Shown here: positions 22,796 to 50,955 of the stretch, piece by piece
Numbering within the stretch: the stretch's first letter is position 1
Layout of the letters: every line of letters starts with the position of its first letter
From: Eledone cirrhosa
Taxonomy: Eukaryota
Length of the DNA stretch: 64,000 nt
Direction of reading: 5' to 3'
Assembly: GCA_964016885.1 (NCBI GenBank)
Contig: OZ024741.1
Coordinates: 345,216,001 to 345,280,000 of the forward strand
Made by a program: the position numbers and the translations under genes
Notes under the pieces: generated by a model
Told to the model about the DNA's origin: nothing
The model's database searches: none
Seen by the model: only the letters and a program-made list of their open reading frames with translations

Positions 22796-23399
22796 TAAGA
22801 TCGTAAGGACGTGAATTCGAATTAAAGACCGTTCAACACGTTGTCTCCTTGAGCAAGGCACTTTATTTCAAGTTGCTTCAGTCCACTCTCCTGGAAAACA
22901 TGTACATGTTATTCAAAGGACAAGCCTTGTCATACAGGTTACGCATGCATACACATATATGACAGGCACACATATTCATATACGCACATGCATACGTCCA
23001 TACATACATGAAGGTTGCACTCGACCATTCCCACTCTCTGAGCATCAAAAACACTACCCGAAAAGGACAACTGGTCAACATCATCGGATGCTTCCAAAGG
23101 CGCAGTTTTTTTGGGGGGGGGTTTCATTGTTTCCCTCTCTTAGAAAGGTGTTGTGACAACAACTGGAGGCCTTTCACTCCCATGTGGGGAAAAAAAATAC
23201 TATTTGGATGCCCGTTGTCTCTGCTGAGTTCCTCCGACCTTCGCCGGGTCTTGTATTTCGTCCCGCAGTGTGTCCAAATATCACCCTCCTCACCAAGCAA
23301 GCTTGGTGGGGTTGCCGGTTTAGTCGCCGACGATCCGACCATGAGACAGGTTGTACTAGGTTAGATGTTACCAGTAGCACCCGAGATCGACCTCACATA

Positions 23400-23514
23400 A
23401 GATACATACATACATACACATATACACACATACACACATACATACCTACATACATACGTACATACATACGTACATACATACATACATACATACATACATA
23501 CATACATACATACA

Positions 23515-23544
<30 letters not shown>
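23400..23544. repeat. (CATA)n tract upstream of the Dong elements
   Basis: Direct reading; tract resumes at 31852. Confidence 0.95.
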
Positions 23545-23546
<2 letters not shown>

Positions 23547-26500
23547 ATGGCGACCGTTGTGGTCAGTGTCCGATAATCGGACGTGTGTAATTACGGCTTA
23601 CATGAAGGCAACATATCATATATTGGAAAAAGTTGAGCTACATTACGCGGTAAGATTACATACAATAATTCTACATAAGTGTTTGAACTGTAAGTGTGTT
23701 GTAAAACACCTATTTATATGAACGATACATACACTTATGATATATGAACGATACATACACTTTAACATATAAATGCAACGTTGTTATATTACATTTATAA
23801 AGAAATATACAAGTAACGTTTTCGATTCAGAAACAAAAATATAAGTGTTTGAACTGTGAATATGTTGTGAATGGGTTGTAGAACACCTATTTATATGAAT
23901 GATACATAAACTTTAACATATAAATACAGCGTTGTTATATTATATTACATTCATAAAGGAATATACTAAGTATCGGTTCTTTTTGTTCTCGATTCAAACG
24001 ATTCAAGAGCAACGTTTAAAACACAGTTGTAGAATTAAAAACTAACTGAAAAGAAATATTACTCAAGCTGTGAATAACTTTAAATTTGATTCTGACAGAA
24101 CTTTGTCGTAACTTTTAAAGAAGATCATCGACTATTTTGAAAAATAAATACAAAATATTAGTGAATAGACGAACTCATCATGGCAAAAAGTACAAGTCTC
24201 CTTCGACCAAATCGCAATTACAACCGTTGTACACAGTGGAGCTACGAGCTTAACAAAGTATTATATGAAGCATACAAACAATCTGAACCCCAAAAGTTCG
24301 GTTTTATGCAAAGGCTAAAAACTTTATGGAACTCCAAACACCCAGAATTAGACTTTTCTCCAAAGCATTTAAATGAACAGGCAAAACGTACCATTAGATG
24401 TAAATTGATACATCTAACGGAATCGAGTGATACTACAAATACAGCCCTTGTAGACAACCACCCCACCTCCACTGACAGACAAAGAGAATGGCCAGCTAAA
24501 TCTAACAGTGAACAGCTCACCAACAATTTTGCTGAAATTCATCCCACTTCCACTGAAGAACAGCGAGAAAGGTCAGCTGACTCTAGTAGTAATTGTCACC
24601 ACATCAACAACGAGGCTGAAATTCATGACTCTACTGAACAAACAGAGCACCAAAAACTTGTGGGCTCCCTACAAGTGATATGGAATGATATGTTTCAAGA
24701 GATACACAGCCTTAATGTGAGTGACAGACCATACAACACTAGAGTCAGTAAAGAACCCACTAAATTGGAATTGGAAGCGGTGAACGAAATAGCTGGCAAT
24801 TATCTGAAGGCTATACGATCTAAAGGTGTAGAAACGACATTTGAAACGCTTAATGTTTTGTTATATGTTTCAGCTGTCACATTGCTATCATATAACACAC
24901 ATCTAAAACCACGCAATCAAGATACAAACAGAAAGCCTGAACCAGCGTGGATGCGAAATTTAAAAACCAAAATTTTGTCCCTGAGACGAAGTATCTCACA
25001 CATCGCAGTCGTTATGAAATGCAACATAGAGAGCAACTTCACACAACACCAGGAAGACCTAAAGAAAAAGTTAGAGAGAAGATTTGGAGATACAAAATTT
25101 AAAACTTTGAACTCCAAATTACACCAGTTGAAACAACAACTCACAGCTACAACAGAAAGACTAAAATATAAGTCAACAGCACATAAACGACAAGTGCTAA
25201 ATAGATTGTTTGCCAGAGATCCTAAATCAGTTTATCGCAGCTTCGGTGGCAAAAGCTCAATCTCTGTAAATGACACCCCTTTAAAAGAACAGGTTGAGAG
25301 CTACTGGAGATCTGTATGGGAAACGGATGACGGATTCAACAGACAAGCTAATTGGCTAAAAGAACTGGAACAGGACTACTGCCAACATGTCCAGACAAAA
25401 CAATATGACATAGATGGGTCAATACTGGAAACAGCTCTACAGAAAATGTCGAATAGGAAATCGCCAGGCCCAGACCTCATTACAGGATACTGGTTGAAGA
25501 ATTTCACTTTCTATCGGCAAGATCTCATACGGCTGTTTACAGAAACCATTAAGGGCACACAAGAACTGCCCAGATGGTTATCAACTGCCTCTACTCTCCT
25601 CATTCCCCAAAATAGCCAAACCACCCTTGCTAAAAATTACCGCCCAATTGCCTGCCAAAACATCATGTATAAATTATATACTGGGTGCCTTAACCTGTTC
25701 TTACAGGATCACTGTGCTACCAACAACATCATAACACCTGAGCAAGCTGGTGGAAAGAGGGAGGTGTGGGGTTGCATAGATCACCTACTAACTAACAAAA
25801 TGATTCAGGAAAAAACAACAAAGAATCGCAGAAACATGACTGTCGTGTGGCTGGACTATCAAAAAGCATTTGATAGTGTACCTCATGGGTGGATTGTTAA
25901 GGCTTTACAGTTAGCTAAAGTCCCACAACCATTGGTAGCTGCTGTTGAACGCCTGACCAAGAACTGGTACACCAGTTTGATCCTTAGAGGTGAGAAGGAG
26001 CAGGTTAAGACTGATAAGATACATTACCAGAAGGGCATCTTTCAGGGTGATAGCTTGTCAGTGCTACTCTTCGTTCTCTCACTGAATCCACTATCTTACC
26101 TACTCAGGAAACAAGGTGGACAAAGAAGTGGGACCAGAAGTATCTCCCATCTTTTCTTTGTTGATGACCTGAAGTTGTATGGGCCAAATATCAATGACAT
26201 CAAGAAACAATTGGACCTCATTACACAATTTTCAACCGACATCAAAATGAAATTTGGTGAGTCCAAGTGTGCATATTTGGCAGTAAAACGTGGAAGAGCT
26301 GTGCCCTCCTCTAGAAATCTAGAGATGAACGGCCTGACAATAAAACCTTTGCAGTCAGGTGACAACTACAGATATCTTGGACAGGATGAGAATGTCAGAT
26401 ATGATGGACCCATAAATAAGGAGAGAACCAGAACTGAATACCTCAGAAGAGTAAAGAAAATATGGTCATCAGAACTGTCAGCATACAACAAATACATTGC

Positions 26501-27770
26501 CCACAATACTTATGCTGTGCCAATTCTAACGCCAACATTTGGCCTACTGAACTGGTCATTGCAAGAACTAAGTGAGATGGATGTTAGAACTCGAAAACTT
26601 CTCAGTGTTACTGGGAACTTTAACATCAATGGTGATGTGGATAGGCTATACTTCTCACGCAAGGAAGGTGGCCGGGGTCTAAAATCAATATTAACAACAT
26701 ATGAGACCCGGATAGTGACACTGAAGCAACACCTTCAACAGAGGAAAAAGGTTGGCAACCATCTTGCCCAGGTTTATGACCATGAAAAAAGAAATATCAT
26801 TAGAATAGCGACTGATCTGGAGGAGAGATATGGAATAAAGCCTGATATAAATCTCTCACCCAGAGAAATCGGAATATCCTATTCAATGTTCAAACAAGAT
26901 AAAAAAATTGACCAATTTACAGAAAAAGTTGTGCATGGATACTTGAGGCGTAAAACACAGACCATGGAGGGGATAAACCACTCAAAAAGCCTGGCATGGA
27001 GTTCCGACAAGTTTATGACATCACACCTTGAGGGATATCTCTATGCAATACAGGAACAAGAACTCCCTACCAAATATCTGCTGCACAAAAGAGGAGGGCC
27101 AGCAGCTGACAATAAATGTAGGCTATGTAAAACAAAGATCGAGGATGTAAGCCACATTGTTGCCAGCTGCGAAAGAATGTCATCTCGCTACTACCTCCCC
27201 ATGAGACACGATGGGATAGCTAGAACCATCTGGAACGCACTTCGGAAAACAAAATTAACAACAAACGAGGAAGAATATATTGAGACAGATGGCACTAAGG
27301 AATACTGGTGGAACCTGAAAATAAAAACTGCCACCAAATTAAAGCACAACCGGCCTGATATTGTAGTTTGGGACCACACATTGAAAACGTGTTCTGTTGT
27401 GGAGATCAGCTGCCCACTTGATGTAAACGGTGTCAGAAAAATACAGGAGAAGGAGGACATCTACGGACCATTGATGAGGAGTTTACAAATCCAGTATCCA
27501 AGATACACCTTTAGCTTCATACCCATCATTATTGGTGCTACGGGTTATATACCAACCCGCTTGGACCAAAGTATGACTGAACTTGGATTTGCGGACAAAA
27601 AGCGCAGCTCCCTAATTCATAGTCTACAAATGGCTGCGATAGCTGGCACCTTCAAAATTTGCAAAACATTCTTGCGATTCAAGGGATGACAATTTCTTTT
27701 CTTTTACAACCTTGCCACCAGGAAGGTGGCCGGTCAAAAAAATATACTCAAAATTAAGAGAAAGAGAAAA
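23545..27770 (+). mobile_element. R4/Dong-clade non-LTR retrotransposon, apparently full length
   Basis: ~635-nt 5' region, single ORF, short 3' UTR with GCCACC/GGTGGC hairpin (27714-27730); CATA repeats on both sides. Confidence 0.88.
24180..27689 (+). CDS. 1169-aa RT plus restriction-like endonuclease protein (R4/Dong clade)
   Basis: N-terminal WxxELN...W...P domain typical of R4; KSPGPD, NYRPIAC, LDYQKAFDSVPH, GIFQGDSLS, FFVDDLK, YRYLG; CRLC-x8-H-x4-C knuckle, RHD, RPDIV, VEISCP. Confidence 0.93.
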   Translation: MAKSTSLLRPNRNYNRCTQWSYELNKVLYEAYKQSEPQKFGFMQRLKTLWNSKHPELDFSPKHLNEQAKRTIRCKLIHLTESSDTTNTALVDNHPTSTDRQREWPAKSNSEQLTNNFAEIHPTSTEEQRERSADSSSNCHHINNEAEIHDSTEQTEHQKLVGSLQVIWNDMFQEIHSLNVSDRPYNTRVSKEPTKLELEAVNEIAGNYLKAIRSKGVETTFETLNVLLYVSAVTLLSYNTHLKPRNQDTNRKPEPAWMRNLKTKILSLRRSISHIAVVMKCNIESNFTQHQEDLKKKLERRFGDTKFKTLNSKLHQLKQQLTATTERLKYKSTAHKRQVLNRLFARDPKSVYRSFGGKSSISVNDTPLKEQVESYWRSVWETDDGFNRQANWLKELEQDYCQHVQTKQYDIDGSILETALQKMSNRKSPGPDLITGYWLKNFTFYRQDLIRLFTETIKGTQELPRWLSTASTLLIPQNSQTTLAKNYRPIACQNIMYKLYTGCLNLFLQDHCATNNIITPEQAGGKREVWGCIDHLLTNKMIQEKTTKNRRNMTVVWLDYQKAFDSVPHGWIVKALQLAKVPQPLVAAVERLTKNWYTSLILRGEKEQVKTDKIHYQKGIFQGDSLSVLLFVLSLNPLSYLLRKQGGQRSGTRSISHLFFVDDLKLYGPNINDIKKQLDLITQFSTDIKMKFGESKCAYLAVKRGRAVPSSRNLEMNGLTIKPLQSGDNYRYLGQDENVRYDGPINKERTRTEYLRRVKKIWSSELSAYNKYIAHNTYAVPILTPTFGLLNWSLQELSEMDVRTRKLLSVTGNFNINGDVDRLYFSRKEGGRGLKSILTTYETRIVTLKQHLQQRKKVGNHLAQVYDHEKRNIIRIATDLEERYGIKPDINLSPREIGISYSMFKQDKKIDQFTEKVVHGYLRRKTQTMEGINHSKSLAWSSDKFMTSHLEGYLYAIQEQELPTKYLLHKRGGPAADNKCRLCKTKIEDVSHIVASCERMSSRYYLPMRHDGIARTIWNALRKTKLTTNEEEYIETDGTKEYWWNLKIKTATKLKHNRPDIVVWDHTLKTCSVVEISCPLDVNGVRKIQEKEDIYGPLMRSLQIQYPRYTFSFIPIIIGATGYIPTRLDQSMTELGFADKKRSSLIHSLQMAAIAGTFKICKTFLRFKG

Positions 27771-27778
27771 CATACATA

Positions 27779-30700
27779 GACAGTCAACGCGATCAGTCGC
27801 ATATTTTGGCGTGGGAGACTATTTAATAAATTTAAGATGAATACTATCTCCGACAGTAATGCCACAACTACAGTCAGGTTGAATAACTGGTTATTCTTCT
27901 AACTATCCCTTCTGAAGACACCTTTCATTCGAATTCGTAGAGATATCCGACTAAATACATAATTCATTTTACAAGGATTTGCTACAAGCAGCATGGCTGA
28001 ACACAACATCAACAAAAAAATTAAGGAAGTACCGAAGACAAATAACAAGGAAGGTAATCAAACTTTATTCAGTTGTAGCTGCAGAAGAAACCGAAATTAT
28101 AAATCGCATTTCTCTTGGAGTTGCGAACTTAATAATGGTTTATTTAATTGTTATAAAATGGCAGAAAACAATCCCTCCATTGGCTATATGAATAGAATGA
28201 AGCTACACTGGGACGAAATGCACCCAGAGCTAAATTATTTCACAGCGAAACAATTACGCCAACAAGCGACGTTTGTTGAACGTAAAAATAAGATAAATAT
28301 TATTAATTGTAAGTCCCCAACAACAAACATGTTATCAACGACACGTGCTACAGGTCGCCATGCTACTAGACTTCCTAGCAGCCAGGTCGAACAGCGTCTT
28401 GAAACAACTATGCCTGTAAGAAACTTGACACCACCTGTACCATCTAAGTCTACCACGAATGCTGGGGAAAACACTATCGATAATAATAATAATCGAATAA
28501 ATGTGACACCACGTGTACCATCCGAGTCTACCTCGACTGTTATGGAAAATACTATCGACAATGATAATCAAAAGTATAAACAATTGAAAATTTCCCTCAA
28601 CGAAATCTTCCAGAGAGAAATTAACTCATGTATAAATATCTCTCTTGCTGAACGTGTTAAAACCACAATGTTGAATAATAAAAAAAAAAACAAATAATGA
28701 AATACTACGTGTTATTGACGAAATAGGGGCTGAATATTTACGACGGATAAAAACCCCAACATTTTGGAAAATCAACGCCTGTTTATATGCCCTAGCAACG
28801 ACAGTGAAGCATTACCTTGGTGATAGCAGAGATATTAACAAGAACAAAACACCACCAAAAATCCATCATATATAACTAAAATAGAAAAAAAGATTGCTGA
28901 CCTACGAAAAAAATAGGGTATGTGACAATGCTCCTTACATGCAAACAAACACAAAAAAAACCTCACTCCTCACCAACAAAGAGTGAAAAATAAAATAGAG
29001 ACGATGTTTGGTAACAGTAGAACCAGAACTCTCCAATATAAGCTGATCACCCTCAAACAAGAATTGAGAGCTGTTAGCGAAAAACGCCGATACCTGAAGA
29101 AGGTAGATGAGAGAAAAGTGCTTAATAAAAGATTCAGACGAAACCAAACATCAGTCTATAGAGATATGAAGGGCAAAATAATAAGTGTCACTGAGGCCCC
29201 ATCCCAGAAAGACATAAATTCCTTTTGGAGAAAAATATGGGGTGAAAAGAAGAATGTCAACCAAGATACAGTGTGGCTAAGAGAAATCCGAAAGAACTAT
29301 TGCTCCTACACTACAACAAAAACATACGAAATAAGTGAGGGTACCCTTAAGACTGTGATAAGAAAACTCCAAGATAAGAAAATACCATGGAGAGACATGA
29401 TTGTCGGCTACTGGTACAAAAAACTGATATTCTATCGGAGGTATCTTACTGACCTCTACCAACAAGTTCTTAAGGGAGATACACTTATACCAGAATGGTT
29501 GACATTAGCACAAACATTACTGGTCCCCAAGAACAAAGACACCCACTTGGCAAAAACTACCGACCCATTGCATGCCAGAACCTGATGTATAAGATGTATA
29601 CAGCCAGCCTAAACCTATTCCTCCAAGATCACTGTGAAAATAATAACATCATCACAGATGAACAAGCAGCTGGAAAGAAAGGGTTTGGGACTGTGCTGAA
29701 CAACTCCTAGTCAACAAAACTGCGATGTCGGAGGTGCGACAACTTAGTCTGGCTGGACTACAGGAAAGCTTTCGATTCTGTTCCCCACTCTTAGATGATA
29801 GAGGCCCTCCAACTTGCTAAAGTCCCAGACATTATTGTCAGAGCCATAGAGAGGCTGTCTTCTTCTTGGGCTACTATCCTAAGGTTAACGACAGAGAGGG
29901 ATGACTCTATTTTCACTGATAAAATAAAATATTGCAGGGGTATATTTCAGGGGGACAGTCTCTCTGTGATATTATTCATCTTGTCATTAAACTCCTTGTT
30001 CTTGCTGCTCAAGAAATGTGAGGGATACATCATTGGCTCACAGAAATACGAACCTAACCCATAATTTCTTTGTGGACGATCTGAAACTCTATGCCAAGAA
30101 CATGGATGTGATGAAGAAAAATCTTGACCTGGTTACAACGTTCTCAAAGGATATGGGAATGGAGTTTGGCCAAGATAAATGCTCATACATGACTGTAAAG
30201 CGGGGAAAAACAACAACCCAATCTAGCAACATTGTCATCAATGGCCTAACTGTTTCATTGATATCTGATGAGGACTGCTACAGATACCTGGGGAGGATGA
30301 GAACATATCCTATAATGGTATCTGTAATAAGGAGCGCGTAACCAGGGAATAATACACTCGATTAAGAAAGATCTGGTCATCGGAACTCTCTGCGCAAAAC
30401 AAAACAGTGGCTCACAATGTGTTTACTGTGCCTGTCCTAACACCAACTTTTGGAATACTCAATTCTTACGATAGACGAAATCCGAGCAGTTGATGTTGGA
30501 ACTCGAAATATACTGAACAACACCGGAAACTTCCACATCAACAGTGACATAGACCGCCTTTACTTGAAACGTAAGCAGGGAGGCAGAGGCTTAACATCAG
30601 TCCAGACAACATTTGAATGTCGCATCATATCTCTCCGACAACATCTACGAACCTCGAAGCGTAGGAGCCCGTTTCTCGAGCAAGTTTATCTGCATGAAAC

Positions 30701-31851
30701 AGATAAGATCATGAGAGTTGGGAAGGAACTCCTCGAGAGATATTCCCTGTGTGATAATCAAAAACTCACACCCAGGGATGTCGCTCAGCAGTATCGCTGT
30801 GAATCCATGGATGAAAAACTGCATGCCTATCAGCAAAAAATCATGCATGGATATGTTGCCAGGAAGCTCCAGAGTGAGAGTAATATAGATAAGGAAAGTA
30901 GTCTATCTTGGACTAACAACCGCTATTTTGGCTCCCACTTTGAAGGATACGCTTTTGCAATCCAGGAACAAGAGATTAGCACGAAATACCTGATTCACAA
31001 AAGAGATAGGGATGCAGGCAAAACACCTAGATGTGATAATAAGTGCAGACTCTGCAGAACTAACATCGAGGATATCACCCATGTCATCAGCAACTGTCCA
31101 AAGATGTCATCGCGGTACTATCTTCCTATGAGGCATGATGTAGTGGCCAAAACACTGTACAATGCAGTTCGTAAAAAAAATAACCCCGATAATAAACATA
31201 TTAAAAGCTACAACAAAGTCGAAGACATTCATGTACATAATATGAAAGAGTACTGGTGGAATGTTCCAGTAAAAACCCCAATAAAATGCAGGCATAACAG
31301 ACCAGATATTATGATATGGGACAGGGAGAAGAAAATATGCGCAGTAGTGGAAATTCGCTGCCCAGTAGATGCCAATATAATATCAAAGATTAGTGAAAAG
31401 GAGAATATTTATGCAGAACTGATGAGAAATCTGCAGATACTCCACCCTGATTACACCTTCAGATTTATGCCTGTGATTATTGGGGCACTGGGATATGTTA
31501 GTAACTGTCTCAATACAAATCTTGAGAAGCTAGGCTTCACAGGAACAGAAAGAACACAACTAGTTAGGAAATTACAAGTACAATCCATTAATGGAACAGT
31601 AAAAATATGTAAAACATTCCAAAATGTTGCATCTAATAACTGCATATGCACATGTACAGACACATGCACACATACAACTCAAAACATACACATCCACACA
31701 TACAATAACATCTATATCTACACATGCATGCATACATACATATCTACCTAGTTGATGTTGTGTAAATTCCAATGAGAGAGTCTTGTGTCTATGTTAGAAA
31801 CCGACTCTCTCTCTCTATTGGCAAAACTTTGTGAAATTATAAAACCAGAAG
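27779..31851 (+). mobile_element. Second, divergent R4/Dong element; multiply frameshifted
   Basis: Collinear ORF fragments 27993-31640: GYMNRMKLHW, NYRPIAC, GIFQGDSLS, FFVDDLK, CRLC...H...C, RHD, RPDIM; 3' hairpin GAGAGAGTC/GACTCTCTC (31774-31811); ends at (TACA)n. Confidence 0.9.
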
Positions 31852-31871
31852 TACATACATACATACATACA

Positions 31872-31907
<36 letters not shown>

Positions 31908-32649
31908 TGCATACATACACATATTTATACAGACAAATTCGCAAAAGCACATATATACGTTCATCACACATACACGATCATGTCTGTACATTCATACATA
32001 CATACGTACATATGAATCCACATATGCATAATATATACCACTAGCAAACATAGAAATACTCACATACAGATAAACACGAACACACGAACATATTCACGCA
32101 CTGCGATACATACATACGGAAGCACACACACACACACATAGAGACACACGAATACACGCATAACGATAAATCCTACACATACACACGCACACACACTGAG
32201 ATACACACACACTCACACACAATTCCACACAATACAGAGAAACATTCACATACACAGATACATACAAATATAAATACACACGCACACCTCCAATACTGGA
32301 ACAACAACAACAATAATAACAACCACAACAACCAAACAAACACCTCCACCACCGCCAACACCACCGCCACGACCACCAACACCACGACCACCAACACTCA
32401 CCACCACCAACACTACCATCACGACCAACAATACCACCACCACTACCACCATCACCAGAAGAACAACAACATAACCAACAACTGACCACCACCACCACCA
32501 CCACCACCACCAACACCACCACCACCACCACCACCACAACCACCACGACCACGACGACGACGACCACCACCACCAACAACACCACCACCACGACCACCAC
32601 AACCACCACGACCACCACCACTACAACCACAACCACCACAACCACCCCC

Positions 32650-33165
32650 ACCACCAGATCAGCAACAACAACAACAACAACAGAAACAACAACAACAACA
32701 ACATAACCGAAGACAACAACAGCAGCAGTAGCAGCAGCACCACCACCCCCACCACCAGATCAGCAATAACAACAACAACAACATAACCGAAGACAACAAC
32801 AGCAGCAGTAGCAGCAGCACCACCACCCCGACCACCAGATCAGCAATAACAACAACAACAACATAACCGAAGACAACAACAGCAGCAGTAGCAGCAGCAC
32901 CACCACCCCAACCACCAGATCAGCAATAACAATAACAACAACATAACCGAAGACAACAACAGCAGCAGTAGCAGCAGCACCACCACCCCCACCACCAGAT
33001 CAGCAATAACAACAACAACAACATAACCGAAGACAACAACAGCAGCAGTAGCAGCAGCACCACCACCCCCACCACCAGATCAACAACAACAACAACAACA
33101 TAACCGAAGACAACAACAGCAGCAGTAGTAGCAGCAGCAGCAGCAGCAACACTAACAACAGCACC
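32650..33165. repeat. 80-bp minisatellite built from CAA/CAG/CAC triplets
   Basis: ACCACCAGAT recurs at 32751, 32831, 32911, 32991 and 33071. Confidence 0.9.
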
Positions 33166-41034: not shown

Positions 41035-41418
41035 TGCCCCCTCGTTATCGAGAATGGCCATTGCACGATACACCGTTATTAATAATTATCAATTAATGCT
41101 ATAATGCCTGTGCGTGAACAAATTTTTAAGTGAGGAGAGACTGTGCACTGAGCCAATCCCATTCTCTGAGCGACAGTAGCTATAACCCAAAAAGAAGAAA
41201 GGATCAAAATCATCGGTAACTACTGAGCCACAGGTTTTATGTCGGGATTATCCCAGTTTCCTGATTTGCCTTCTCCTAGAAGAATGCCCTCCTAGTGGTT
41301 TAACGCGCGATTAGGTATGCAGCGCGATTATTTCTATGTCCCCGCGCATATATATACACATGCATACATGCATATACATACATACATACATACATACATA
41401 CATACATACATACATACA

Positions 41419-41563: not shown

Positions 41564-41674
41564 GTATATACATATTTACACATTTTTGGATGGCCATTGA
41601 CTCTTATGAGTTCTTCCACCCTTTGTCAGGTTTTGTTTTTGTTCTCCAGGGTGTCCAAAATCCTCACCAAGTAA

Positions 41675-41731
<57 letters not shown>

Positions 41732-49675: not shown

Positions 49676-50955
49676 GTGAGGGTTTTTTACAAAATGAAAA
49701 ATAACCGAGGTGTCCAACACGAGTGAAAGTATAAAGAAAAAAAGATGAAATCGAAAATGCAACGAGTCTTATTTTAAAAAAATATATATATTTATTTGGT
49801 TCCTTTACCGGTTTCGCAGTTCTTCTGCTTTTCAAAAGTAGAGTTGAGATGGAGGGTGTGTGGTTTTTCTCACATCTTTTGGGTGTGAGAAAAACCACAG
49901 ACCCTCCATCTCAACTCTTGAAAAGCAGAAGAACTGCGAAACCGGTAAAGGAACCAAATAAATATATATTTTTTTTTTAAAATAAGACTGCAGTTGCATT
50001 TTCGATTTCATCTTTCTTTCTTTATGGCAGAACTCATAAGAGTCAACGGCCATCCAAAAGTGTGTAAATATGTATATACACATGTACATATGTATGTATA
50101 TGTATATGTGTATATACACATATACATATGTATGTATATGTATATGTGTATATACATATGTACATATATATGTATATGTGTATATACATGGGTGCATGTG
50201 TATGTATATGCGCGGCGACATAGACATAGTCGATCTGTACACCCGATCGCGCGGTTAAACCACTGGGAGTGAAGGACCCCTAGCCTTTGTCAGGGCATTC
50301 TTCTAGGAGAAGGCAACTCAGGAAACATGGATAACTTCGATATAAATCCTGCGGCTCAGGAGTTACCGATGATGTTGATCTTTTATTCTTTTCAGGTTAT
50401 AGCTACTGTCGCTCAGAGAGTGGGATTGGCTCAGTGCACAGTCTTTCCTCACTTTAAAAATATCTTCACGCACAGGCATTGCACGATAGAATTAATTAAT
50501 AATTATTAATAATGGTATATCGTGCAATGGCCATACTCGATAACGAGGAGGCAGCCATCATGTACGTAAATAAGCATATATGTATGATTGATAAATAGAC
50601 AGTTGTGAAACAGTAATAACTTGATCTCTGTAATACTGTTGTGTGTAATAATGAATAAGAGTATCCGTTGAGAATACGCTACGACTAGTTTACTATATAA
50701 AATGATAAGTGTAGACCGCGCAAATATAGGTGAGAGTAGACGACTGGCGTGATATAGATAGAAATAATTATGTTGACAATATATGCCAACTTATTGAAAG
50801 AAGAAATAAAACCTGTTTTCTATTACTCAAATGCATTGAAACTGGCATAGGGAATTAAACCTATCCCTATGTAACCGTGTATGTATGAATGTGTGTGAAT
50901 GCTCGCATGCATGTACGTATGTAAAATCCCGACTCTCCGGCACCAAGCTGTTTCG

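Follow-up and report, generated by a model that had tools for sequence, protein, structure and literature searches.

Why should two different retrotransposons lie head to tail inside a single microsatellite? The question is raised by a stretch of 64,000 nucleotides from the 3.0-Gb genome of Eledone cirrhosa (contig OZ024741.1, here C2, positions 345216001-345280000), called the window below and used for all coordinates, in which two long interspersed elements (LINEs), element 1 and element 2, lie on the same strand inside one (CATA)n tract. A first-pass annotation made from the sequence alone had described two different R4/Dong retrotransposons stacked in the same orientation, and had proposed a lineage specific for (CATA)n with a potentially active enzyme. 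The layout holds, and the specificity is supported by the flanks of other copies, by strict orientation and by sister families that sit in (TAA)n in the same genome. Very likely, in our judgement, these are two families of R2-like LINEs, each with a single open reading frame (ORF), that target (CATA)n by sequence-specific target-primed reverse transcription, in which the protein is predicted to hold the repeat on the upstream side of the cut and to nick the TATG strand. The locus is built as follows.

23402..23545, plus strand: upstream (CATA)n tract, the target (Tandem Repeats Finder: (ATAC)n at 23402-23544, 35.8 copies, 89% matches)
23546..27770, plus strand: element 1, a full-length, young, R4/Dong-like retrotransposon without long terminal repeats, both ends common to other genomic copies
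27771..27778, plus strand: spacer CATACATA, 8 nt, read from the sequence
27779..31853, plus strand: element 2, a full-length, frameshifted copy of an older family, its ends fixed by other copies
31854..31919, plus strand: downstream (CATA)n tract (Tandem Repeats Finder: 31852-31919, 17 copies)

The end of element 1 and the spacer stand where they were first placed, but the start, given as 23545, is set here to 23546, the junction base being ambiguous between the two. Because the element 2 family ends in ...CCAGAAGAA, the last base of this copy is 31853, position 31852 carrying one substitution, and the downstream repeat, rightly seen, begins at 31854 rather than at 31852. Neither element carries a long poly(A), as had been noted, and element 2 is as decayed and divergent as described, with at least four frame pieces and 31-50% amino acid identity to the element 1 protein (tblastn). 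No rRNA match was found in window 22800-32100.

Is the repeat a target that was there beforehand, or something that the elements bring along? The 3' junctions of both families were collected as had been proposed: CAYA follows 1908 of the 2094 genomic 3' ends of the element 1 family (found by a 19-base pattern, beside 337 exact 5' ends) and 5298 of 6069 for element 2. The family's 3' end also runs into CATAC in contigs of three other sequencing runs, with three organism labels and from three studies; a fourth run had very little coverage. Since CATA after the 3' end could by itself be a tail, the 5' junctions were examined. The first 100 matches listed on contig C1, ordered by position and not selected by flank, yielded 95 copies; removal of 2 of another subfamily (85% identity) and of 14 with their 5' end outside the locus left 79. 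Counting two or more CATA per 30 nt as a CATA flank, 75 of the 79 have one upstream and 74 downstream, while CATA in the reverse orientation was counted 0 times upstream and in one copy downstream. In the background, made up of 40 evenly spaced 10-kb stretches (400 kb), 2164 of 79,760 30-nt windows (2.7%) qualify, so the arrangement lies well beyond chance.

Of the copies truncated at the 5' end, 64 of 68 have CATA upstream, a position for which a 3' tail encoded by the element offers no explanation, and such junctions are found also beside unique DNA. Truncated element 2 copies behave similarly (15 of 18, in loci picked by 3' similarity), and the fetched 5' ends lay in CATA-type sequence in 30 of 30 cases for each of the two families. 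Past the 3' end, the first four bases are CATA in 87 of 93 element 1 copies; the first 8 nt depart from pure CATA in 22 of the 93 (p 0.0006) and in 6 of 27 young full-length copies (p 0.006), more than the divergence of an inherited tail predicts, and the repeat is therefore a pre-existing target. Thus, neither of the two findings that had been named as speaking against a (CATA)n-specific lineage was made: other copies do lie in CATA, and the repeat is not a tail encoded by the 3' end of the element.

Nor do the elements merely follow repeat abundance, since TA and CA runs are more abundant and yet rarely used: in the same 400 kb, pure runs cover 16.4 kb (TA), 5.3 kb (CA) and 2.3 kb (CATA), that is, 7 and 2.3 times the CATA figure. 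Two related families of the same genome, found by a search with a distant relative, have TAA-ended loci in 30 of 30 fetched cases, and one of them has many intact 1216-aa ORFs with 31% amino acid identity to element 1. TAA-targeting relatives were seen at L321-L326 (for example G000:C3:356562800-356568300) and L291-L299.

What kind of protein would make such a choice? The element 1 ORF is uninterrupted, as first reported, and its features are these.

24180..27689, plus strand: single intact ORF, 1169 aa, without a stop (predicted model, mean predicted local distance difference test 79.9)
24237..24398, plus strand: N-terminal three-helix domain (aa 20-73; helices 22-34, 42-53 and 61-73), likely Myb-like
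25614..26357, plus strand: reverse transcriptase (RT) domain with FVDD (PF00078, aa 479-726, E 6.8e-24)
27117..27170, plus strand: CCHC zinc knuckle (C980, C983, H992, C997), conserved in the alignment of relatives
27345..27464, plus strand: restriction-like endonuclease core (P1059-D1060, E1075, K1091-x3-Y1095), from sequence and alignment
27690..27770, plus strand: 3' untranslated region (UTR), 81 nt, with a predicted stem-loop (core 27714-27730; z -3.14) and no poly(A)

The knuckle and the PD..E..K nuclease core are conserved across 23 aligned relatives; the core motif bears the name used for R2. The best PDB matches, by sequence and by fold, are R2 proteins, as are all of the top seven fold matches of the model. 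An RxNRxY motif precedes the three-helix domain, which has a conserved Trp and an Atlas score of 0.84 for Myb_Rap1 (below 0.9, and a lead only). The N-terminal region has no C2H2 pattern and no finger-family match, and the protein has no match to the apurinic/apyrimidinic endonuclease (APE) families PF03372 or PF14529. Among named proteins, the closest comes from Argonauta hians (62% across 64% of the searched region). At window 27429-27431, near the nuclease core, element 1 encodes Gly, in contrast to the Val of the 14 other intact 1169-aa copies listed; the catalytic residues are retained. As for the 3'-UTR stem-loops first ascribed to both elements, that of element 1 stands up (1 of 200 shuffles equally stable), whereas that of element 2 is weak (z -1.55; 14 of 200). 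The 5' end of element 1, AATGGCG (window 23546-23555), presumably recalls the YY1 site of L1 promoters.

By analogy with R2Bm, which is described as needing target positions -38 to -7 and none from +6 to +37, with a Myb domain and a zinc finger on the upstream motif (PMC10499050), the protein would grip the repeat upstream of the cut through its three-helix N-terminus. The TATG strand would then be nicked and target-primed reverse transcription would start there, so placed that the 3' end of the element is joined directly ahead of a CATA unit, without poly(A). At the 5' end, short stretches common to the repeat and the newly made DNA would mediate the joining; among truncated copies, 34 of 44 clean junctions have at least 1 nt of microhomology with the repeat, compared with an expected 29%. 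Target should remain on both sides after each insertion, so that later copies land beside earlier ones, and what is left downstream can be as little as 3-8 bases.

The stack in the window would be one outcome of this process, and it has many counterparts. Another element lies within 300 nt downstream of 41 of 93 element 1 copies (12 element 1, 4 element 2 and 25 of a third family, family X), with these neighbours all in one orientation, and within 300 nt upstream of 38 of 79 copies, while the three families together make up <1% of random DNA. Stacking is thus the rule for these families, and the stack in the window is ordinary, not a special event.

Which of the two came first? The ages were taken from 72 element 1 5' starts in 70 loci, of which 53 had a recognisable 3' end, making 54 full-length copies with that of the window. 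The closest pair is 0.05% apart, 17 of the 54 are intact, with a frame of at least 1165 aa, and 0.57% separates the window copy from its nearest sibling. Of 20 fetched element 2 loci, 13 had both ends, none of them intact (0/13); the distance between the window copy and the closest of these 13 other full-length copies is 3.1%. Element 1 is the younger (0.57% vs 3.1%) and was therefore likely inserted after element 2, 8 nt in front of it, and the spacer CATACATA is likely what remains of the tract upstream of element 2. Young copies in front of older ones are repeatedly followed by short spacers. The copy-divergence check that had been suggested thus agrees with a young family 1, which has likely been active recently; the young intact copies point to a potentially active enzyme at present. 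One young element 1 subfamily lacks ~200 bp of the 5' UTR and has the leader CATATATAA in 7 of 12 copies (L164, L185, L186, L213, L221 and others); in a second, the junction is always CATAC/AATGG.

Several observations weigh against this reading. Some 3' ends are followed by something other than CAYA (186 of 2094 for element 1, 771 of 6069 for element 2), and 4 of 79 5' junctions have no CATA. Flanks of mixed CATA/TATA/CACA are frequent and the upstream flank of L175 is plain TA, so the target specificity is loose, and most of the sampled junctions lie on contig C1. The assignment to Myb is weak: there is no Pfam Myb match in the element 1 protein, and a fold search with the N-terminus (VIA rows, single-sequence model) returned generic helical matches with Z <=5.4 and no Myb. 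Were the upstream footprint fixed, tract length should be shifted by a constant amount, but the upstream runs look stretched, not shifted, and element 2 has no asymmetry at all (18 copies, 18 nt upstream vs 15 nt downstream, p 0.73).

This last point bears on the strongest alternative, in which the act of inserting adds further pure CATA to the 5' junction, so that the elements lengthen their own target, by copying the target repeatedly or by copying an RNA leader that bears CATA. The median pure CATA run is 46 nt upstream vs 18.5 nt downstream in the 54 full-length copies and 45 vs 19 nt in 68 truncated ones (p 2e-7). Random placement in the tracts already there accounts for the downstream lengths, but both the upstream lengths and the totals are greater than it predicts. 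However, the background tracts come from four loci, one of which supplied 13 of the 19 long tracts, so the expected tract length is poorly known and the length test is weak, and binding to an upstream footprint would yield an asymmetry in the same direction. The letters at the junctions of full-length copies follow subfamily (16 of 27 nearest neighbours agree vs 7.1 expected, p 0.0004), so a few leader bases are inherited, as writing from a leader would have it. Short repeats of the element's own 5' end or of internal fragments lie just upstream of the junction at L034, L039, L016, L098 and L101, and likewise at L043 and L044, and look like template jumping; the first five also fit repeated copying, as does an 18-nt duplication around 28 nt of pure CATA at L121. 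On the other side, duplications are no commoner at the junction (7 of 157) than at other offsets within the same loci (4-10). Target-site duplications were rejected on the same count: the 11 candidates, vs 2.8 in cross-locus comparison, reflect the self-similarity of the tracts. Nor did any empty allele turn up among the fetched loci, every match being another stack. We regard the writing of CATA as possible but tentative, with the odds clearly against it.

A broader version, to which we give a slightly smaller chance, is that an old, unnamed Dong-like branch switched from TAA to CWTA targets (CATA here, CTTA elsewhere), and that its RT writes CATA at each 5' junction. If true, these elements build repeats used by themselves and by tens of thousands of antisense passenger elements.

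It seems unlikely that base pairing does the targeting, read-through transcripts priming on any nicked CATA strand while the nuclease itself has loose specificity. Flanks are often mixed YA repeats, and since poly(A) and a fixed tail are both absent, transcripts that run on past the element would finish with CAUA; homology at the 3' end is also described as aiding a precise start by R2Bm. The same source describes R2Bm as not requiring such homology, however (PMC10499050), copies followed by TATA, TACA, CGTA, CAGA or AAAA do occur, and the long pure run upstream is unexplained by pairing at the 3' end. Least credible of all is an absence of active targeting, in which a tail of CATA is carried or made by the elements and subsequent copies anneal to it or simply survive in repeat-rich DNA, since this is largely refuted by the truncated 5' junctions in CATA, some of them beside unique DNA, and is opposed by the degenerate flanks directly behind young copies, the strict orientation, the TAA-sorting sister families and the little-used TA and CA repeats, even though CATA directly follows most 3' ends and many tracts double as tails or flanks of other elements, as the upstream neighbours testify.

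We return, then, to sequence-specific targeting of (CATA)n, and to the other users of the same tracts. Family X is non-coding, ~607 bp long (L035:803-1409) and has at least 27,395 genomic ends. A relic related to it, missing from the first-pass annotation, adjoins the opposite side of the upstream tract in the window.

23011..23398, minus strand: non-coding relic related to family X (23203-23381 is 83% identical to X 418-595; outer limits set by eye)

Further relatives lie at 876-1090, 41103-41216, 41584-41678 and 50257-50482, in addition to 23203-23381. One end of family X is fixed and bears a hairpin, which by eye seems to covary among subfamilies, and the other end is variable, so the family likely runs antisense to the Dong-like elements in shared tracts. 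We take it to resemble RTE-derived short interspersed elements. It was considered as a passenger of elements 1 and 2 and rejected, its orientation being opposite and no BLAST match being shared. Elsewhere in the window, an 80-bp tandem repeat at 32681-33136 (5.7 copies, 96% matches) has runs of CAA, CAG and CAC.

How are the two families related to each other and to TAA-targeting elements? Of 80 metagenome loci, 4 are nearer the CATA protein and 76 nearer the TAA protein. The 4 have (CTTA)n on both sides (1), upstream only (1) or no flanking run (2); among the 76, a hand count found a TAA-type run in the flanking repeats of 34, the rest being mostly short contigs. Two metagenome contigs of the CATA/CTTA branch, L333 and L335, have stop-free frames of 1165 and 1153 aa flanked by (CTTA)n. 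An RT tree of 40 rows, among them the 4 CATA-side metagenome loci, 15 rows picked for their TAA flanks and one ATT-flanked row, was built with APE-type and Ulp1-bearing LINEs as outgroups, leaving out named Dong, R4 and Rex6 as well as HERO, CRE and R2. Both window elements and the CTTA loci fall on one branch (99.3/100), which is joined to the TAA-flanked rows (100/100), and another tree is similar; neither RT tree makes sisters of the two CATA families, with weak support. A lepidopteran protein groups with the CATA elements and the TAA-flanked elements, apart from the APE-type and Ulp1-bearing LINEs. One TAA-branch relative, L348, has ATT flanking runs, of a polarity opposite to that of its tree neighbours.

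Judged by sequence, the CATA families form a branch separate from the TAA-targeting Dong elements, with branch relatives in (CTTA)n. They probably belong to the R4 clade, and the R4/Dong identity first given to them keeps its footing in the domain layout and in the grouping with TAA-flanked elements, in trees drawn without named Dong, R4 or Rex6, no such named protein having appeared among the hits of two protein searches or in ten clusters.

Is the target new? Such elements are on record in octopus genomes: five Dong-R4 families with 1129 recent insertions are reported in O. vulgaris (Bonar 2026, PMC13282606) and one full-length Dong in O. bimaculoides (Petrosino 2022, PMC9115989), and octopus and mollusc papers describe Dong-R4 as abundant or recently active (PMC8967140, PMC9115989, PMC10294476), the passages on these elements naming no target. 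The element 1 and 2 families may already be among those libraries. No CATA- or CTTA-specific R4/Dong element was found among the matches listed by full-text literature searches, which did not cover Repbase, Dfam, subscription papers and supplements, where one may be recorded. The target, which the first-pass annotation did not recall as described, thus appears new for the R4/Dong group, but the repeat itself is a known target of Waldo (WaldoAg1, WaldoAg2 and WaldoFs1, of the R1 clade), which is reported to insert into ACAY microsatellites (PMC3812793). ACAY includes (ACAT)n, which is (CATA)n in another phase, but Waldo uses an APE endonuclease, whereas element 1 has a C-terminal PD..E restriction-like nuclease and no APE.

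With R2 (R2Bm, R2Tg), element 1 shares the order of RT, linker, CCHC and restriction-like endonuclease, and upstream recognition is likely the same. R2, on the other hand, has one or more N-terminal C2H2 fingers and a target in 28S ribosomal DNA, whereas element 1 has no finger and uses dispersed microsatellites. Another LINE with a restriction-like nuclease, Togen, is reported to use (TG)n (PMC4640811), and (CATA)n widens the range of targets known for this class. It also accounts for the nests of these families. For gene writing the use is modest, since a microsatellite target is spread through the genome and offers no unique site.

The closest likeness is to Dong itself, which is reported in (TAA)n in silkworm, mosquito and snail (PMC3812793). 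Bombyx mori Dong, DongAg, DongBg and an ostracod Dong are described with a single ORF, an RT with a restriction-like nuclease and a microsatellite target (PMC7998251, PMC3812793), and a diverged N-terminal Myb/SANT-like domain is reported for R4/Dong (PMC7998251); a three-helix N-terminus without zinc fingers appears common to Dong and element 1. The differences are the (CATA)n target of elements 1 and 2, and a separate branch with the RxNRxY motif and 31% identity to the TAA family of this genome. Bombyx Dong is also described with a 5' HDV-like (hepatitis delta virus-like) ribozyme (PMC3774820), whereas none was found for element 1 by Rfam or by our own descriptor, which had no positive control, the fetched TAA-family regions possibly not reaching that family's 5' end. 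The element 1 and 2 families thus work like Dong but are not Dong in the strict (TAA)n sense. Element 1 and the TAA family with 1216-aa ORFs make a matched pair of enzymes in one genome, a CATA-seeking one of 1169 aa and a TAA-seeking one of 1216 aa, both intact and 31% identical. The pair is well suited to asking which part of the protein, the Myb-like domain or the nuclease, decides the choice of microsatellite, a matter hitherto argued by analogy with R2 only.

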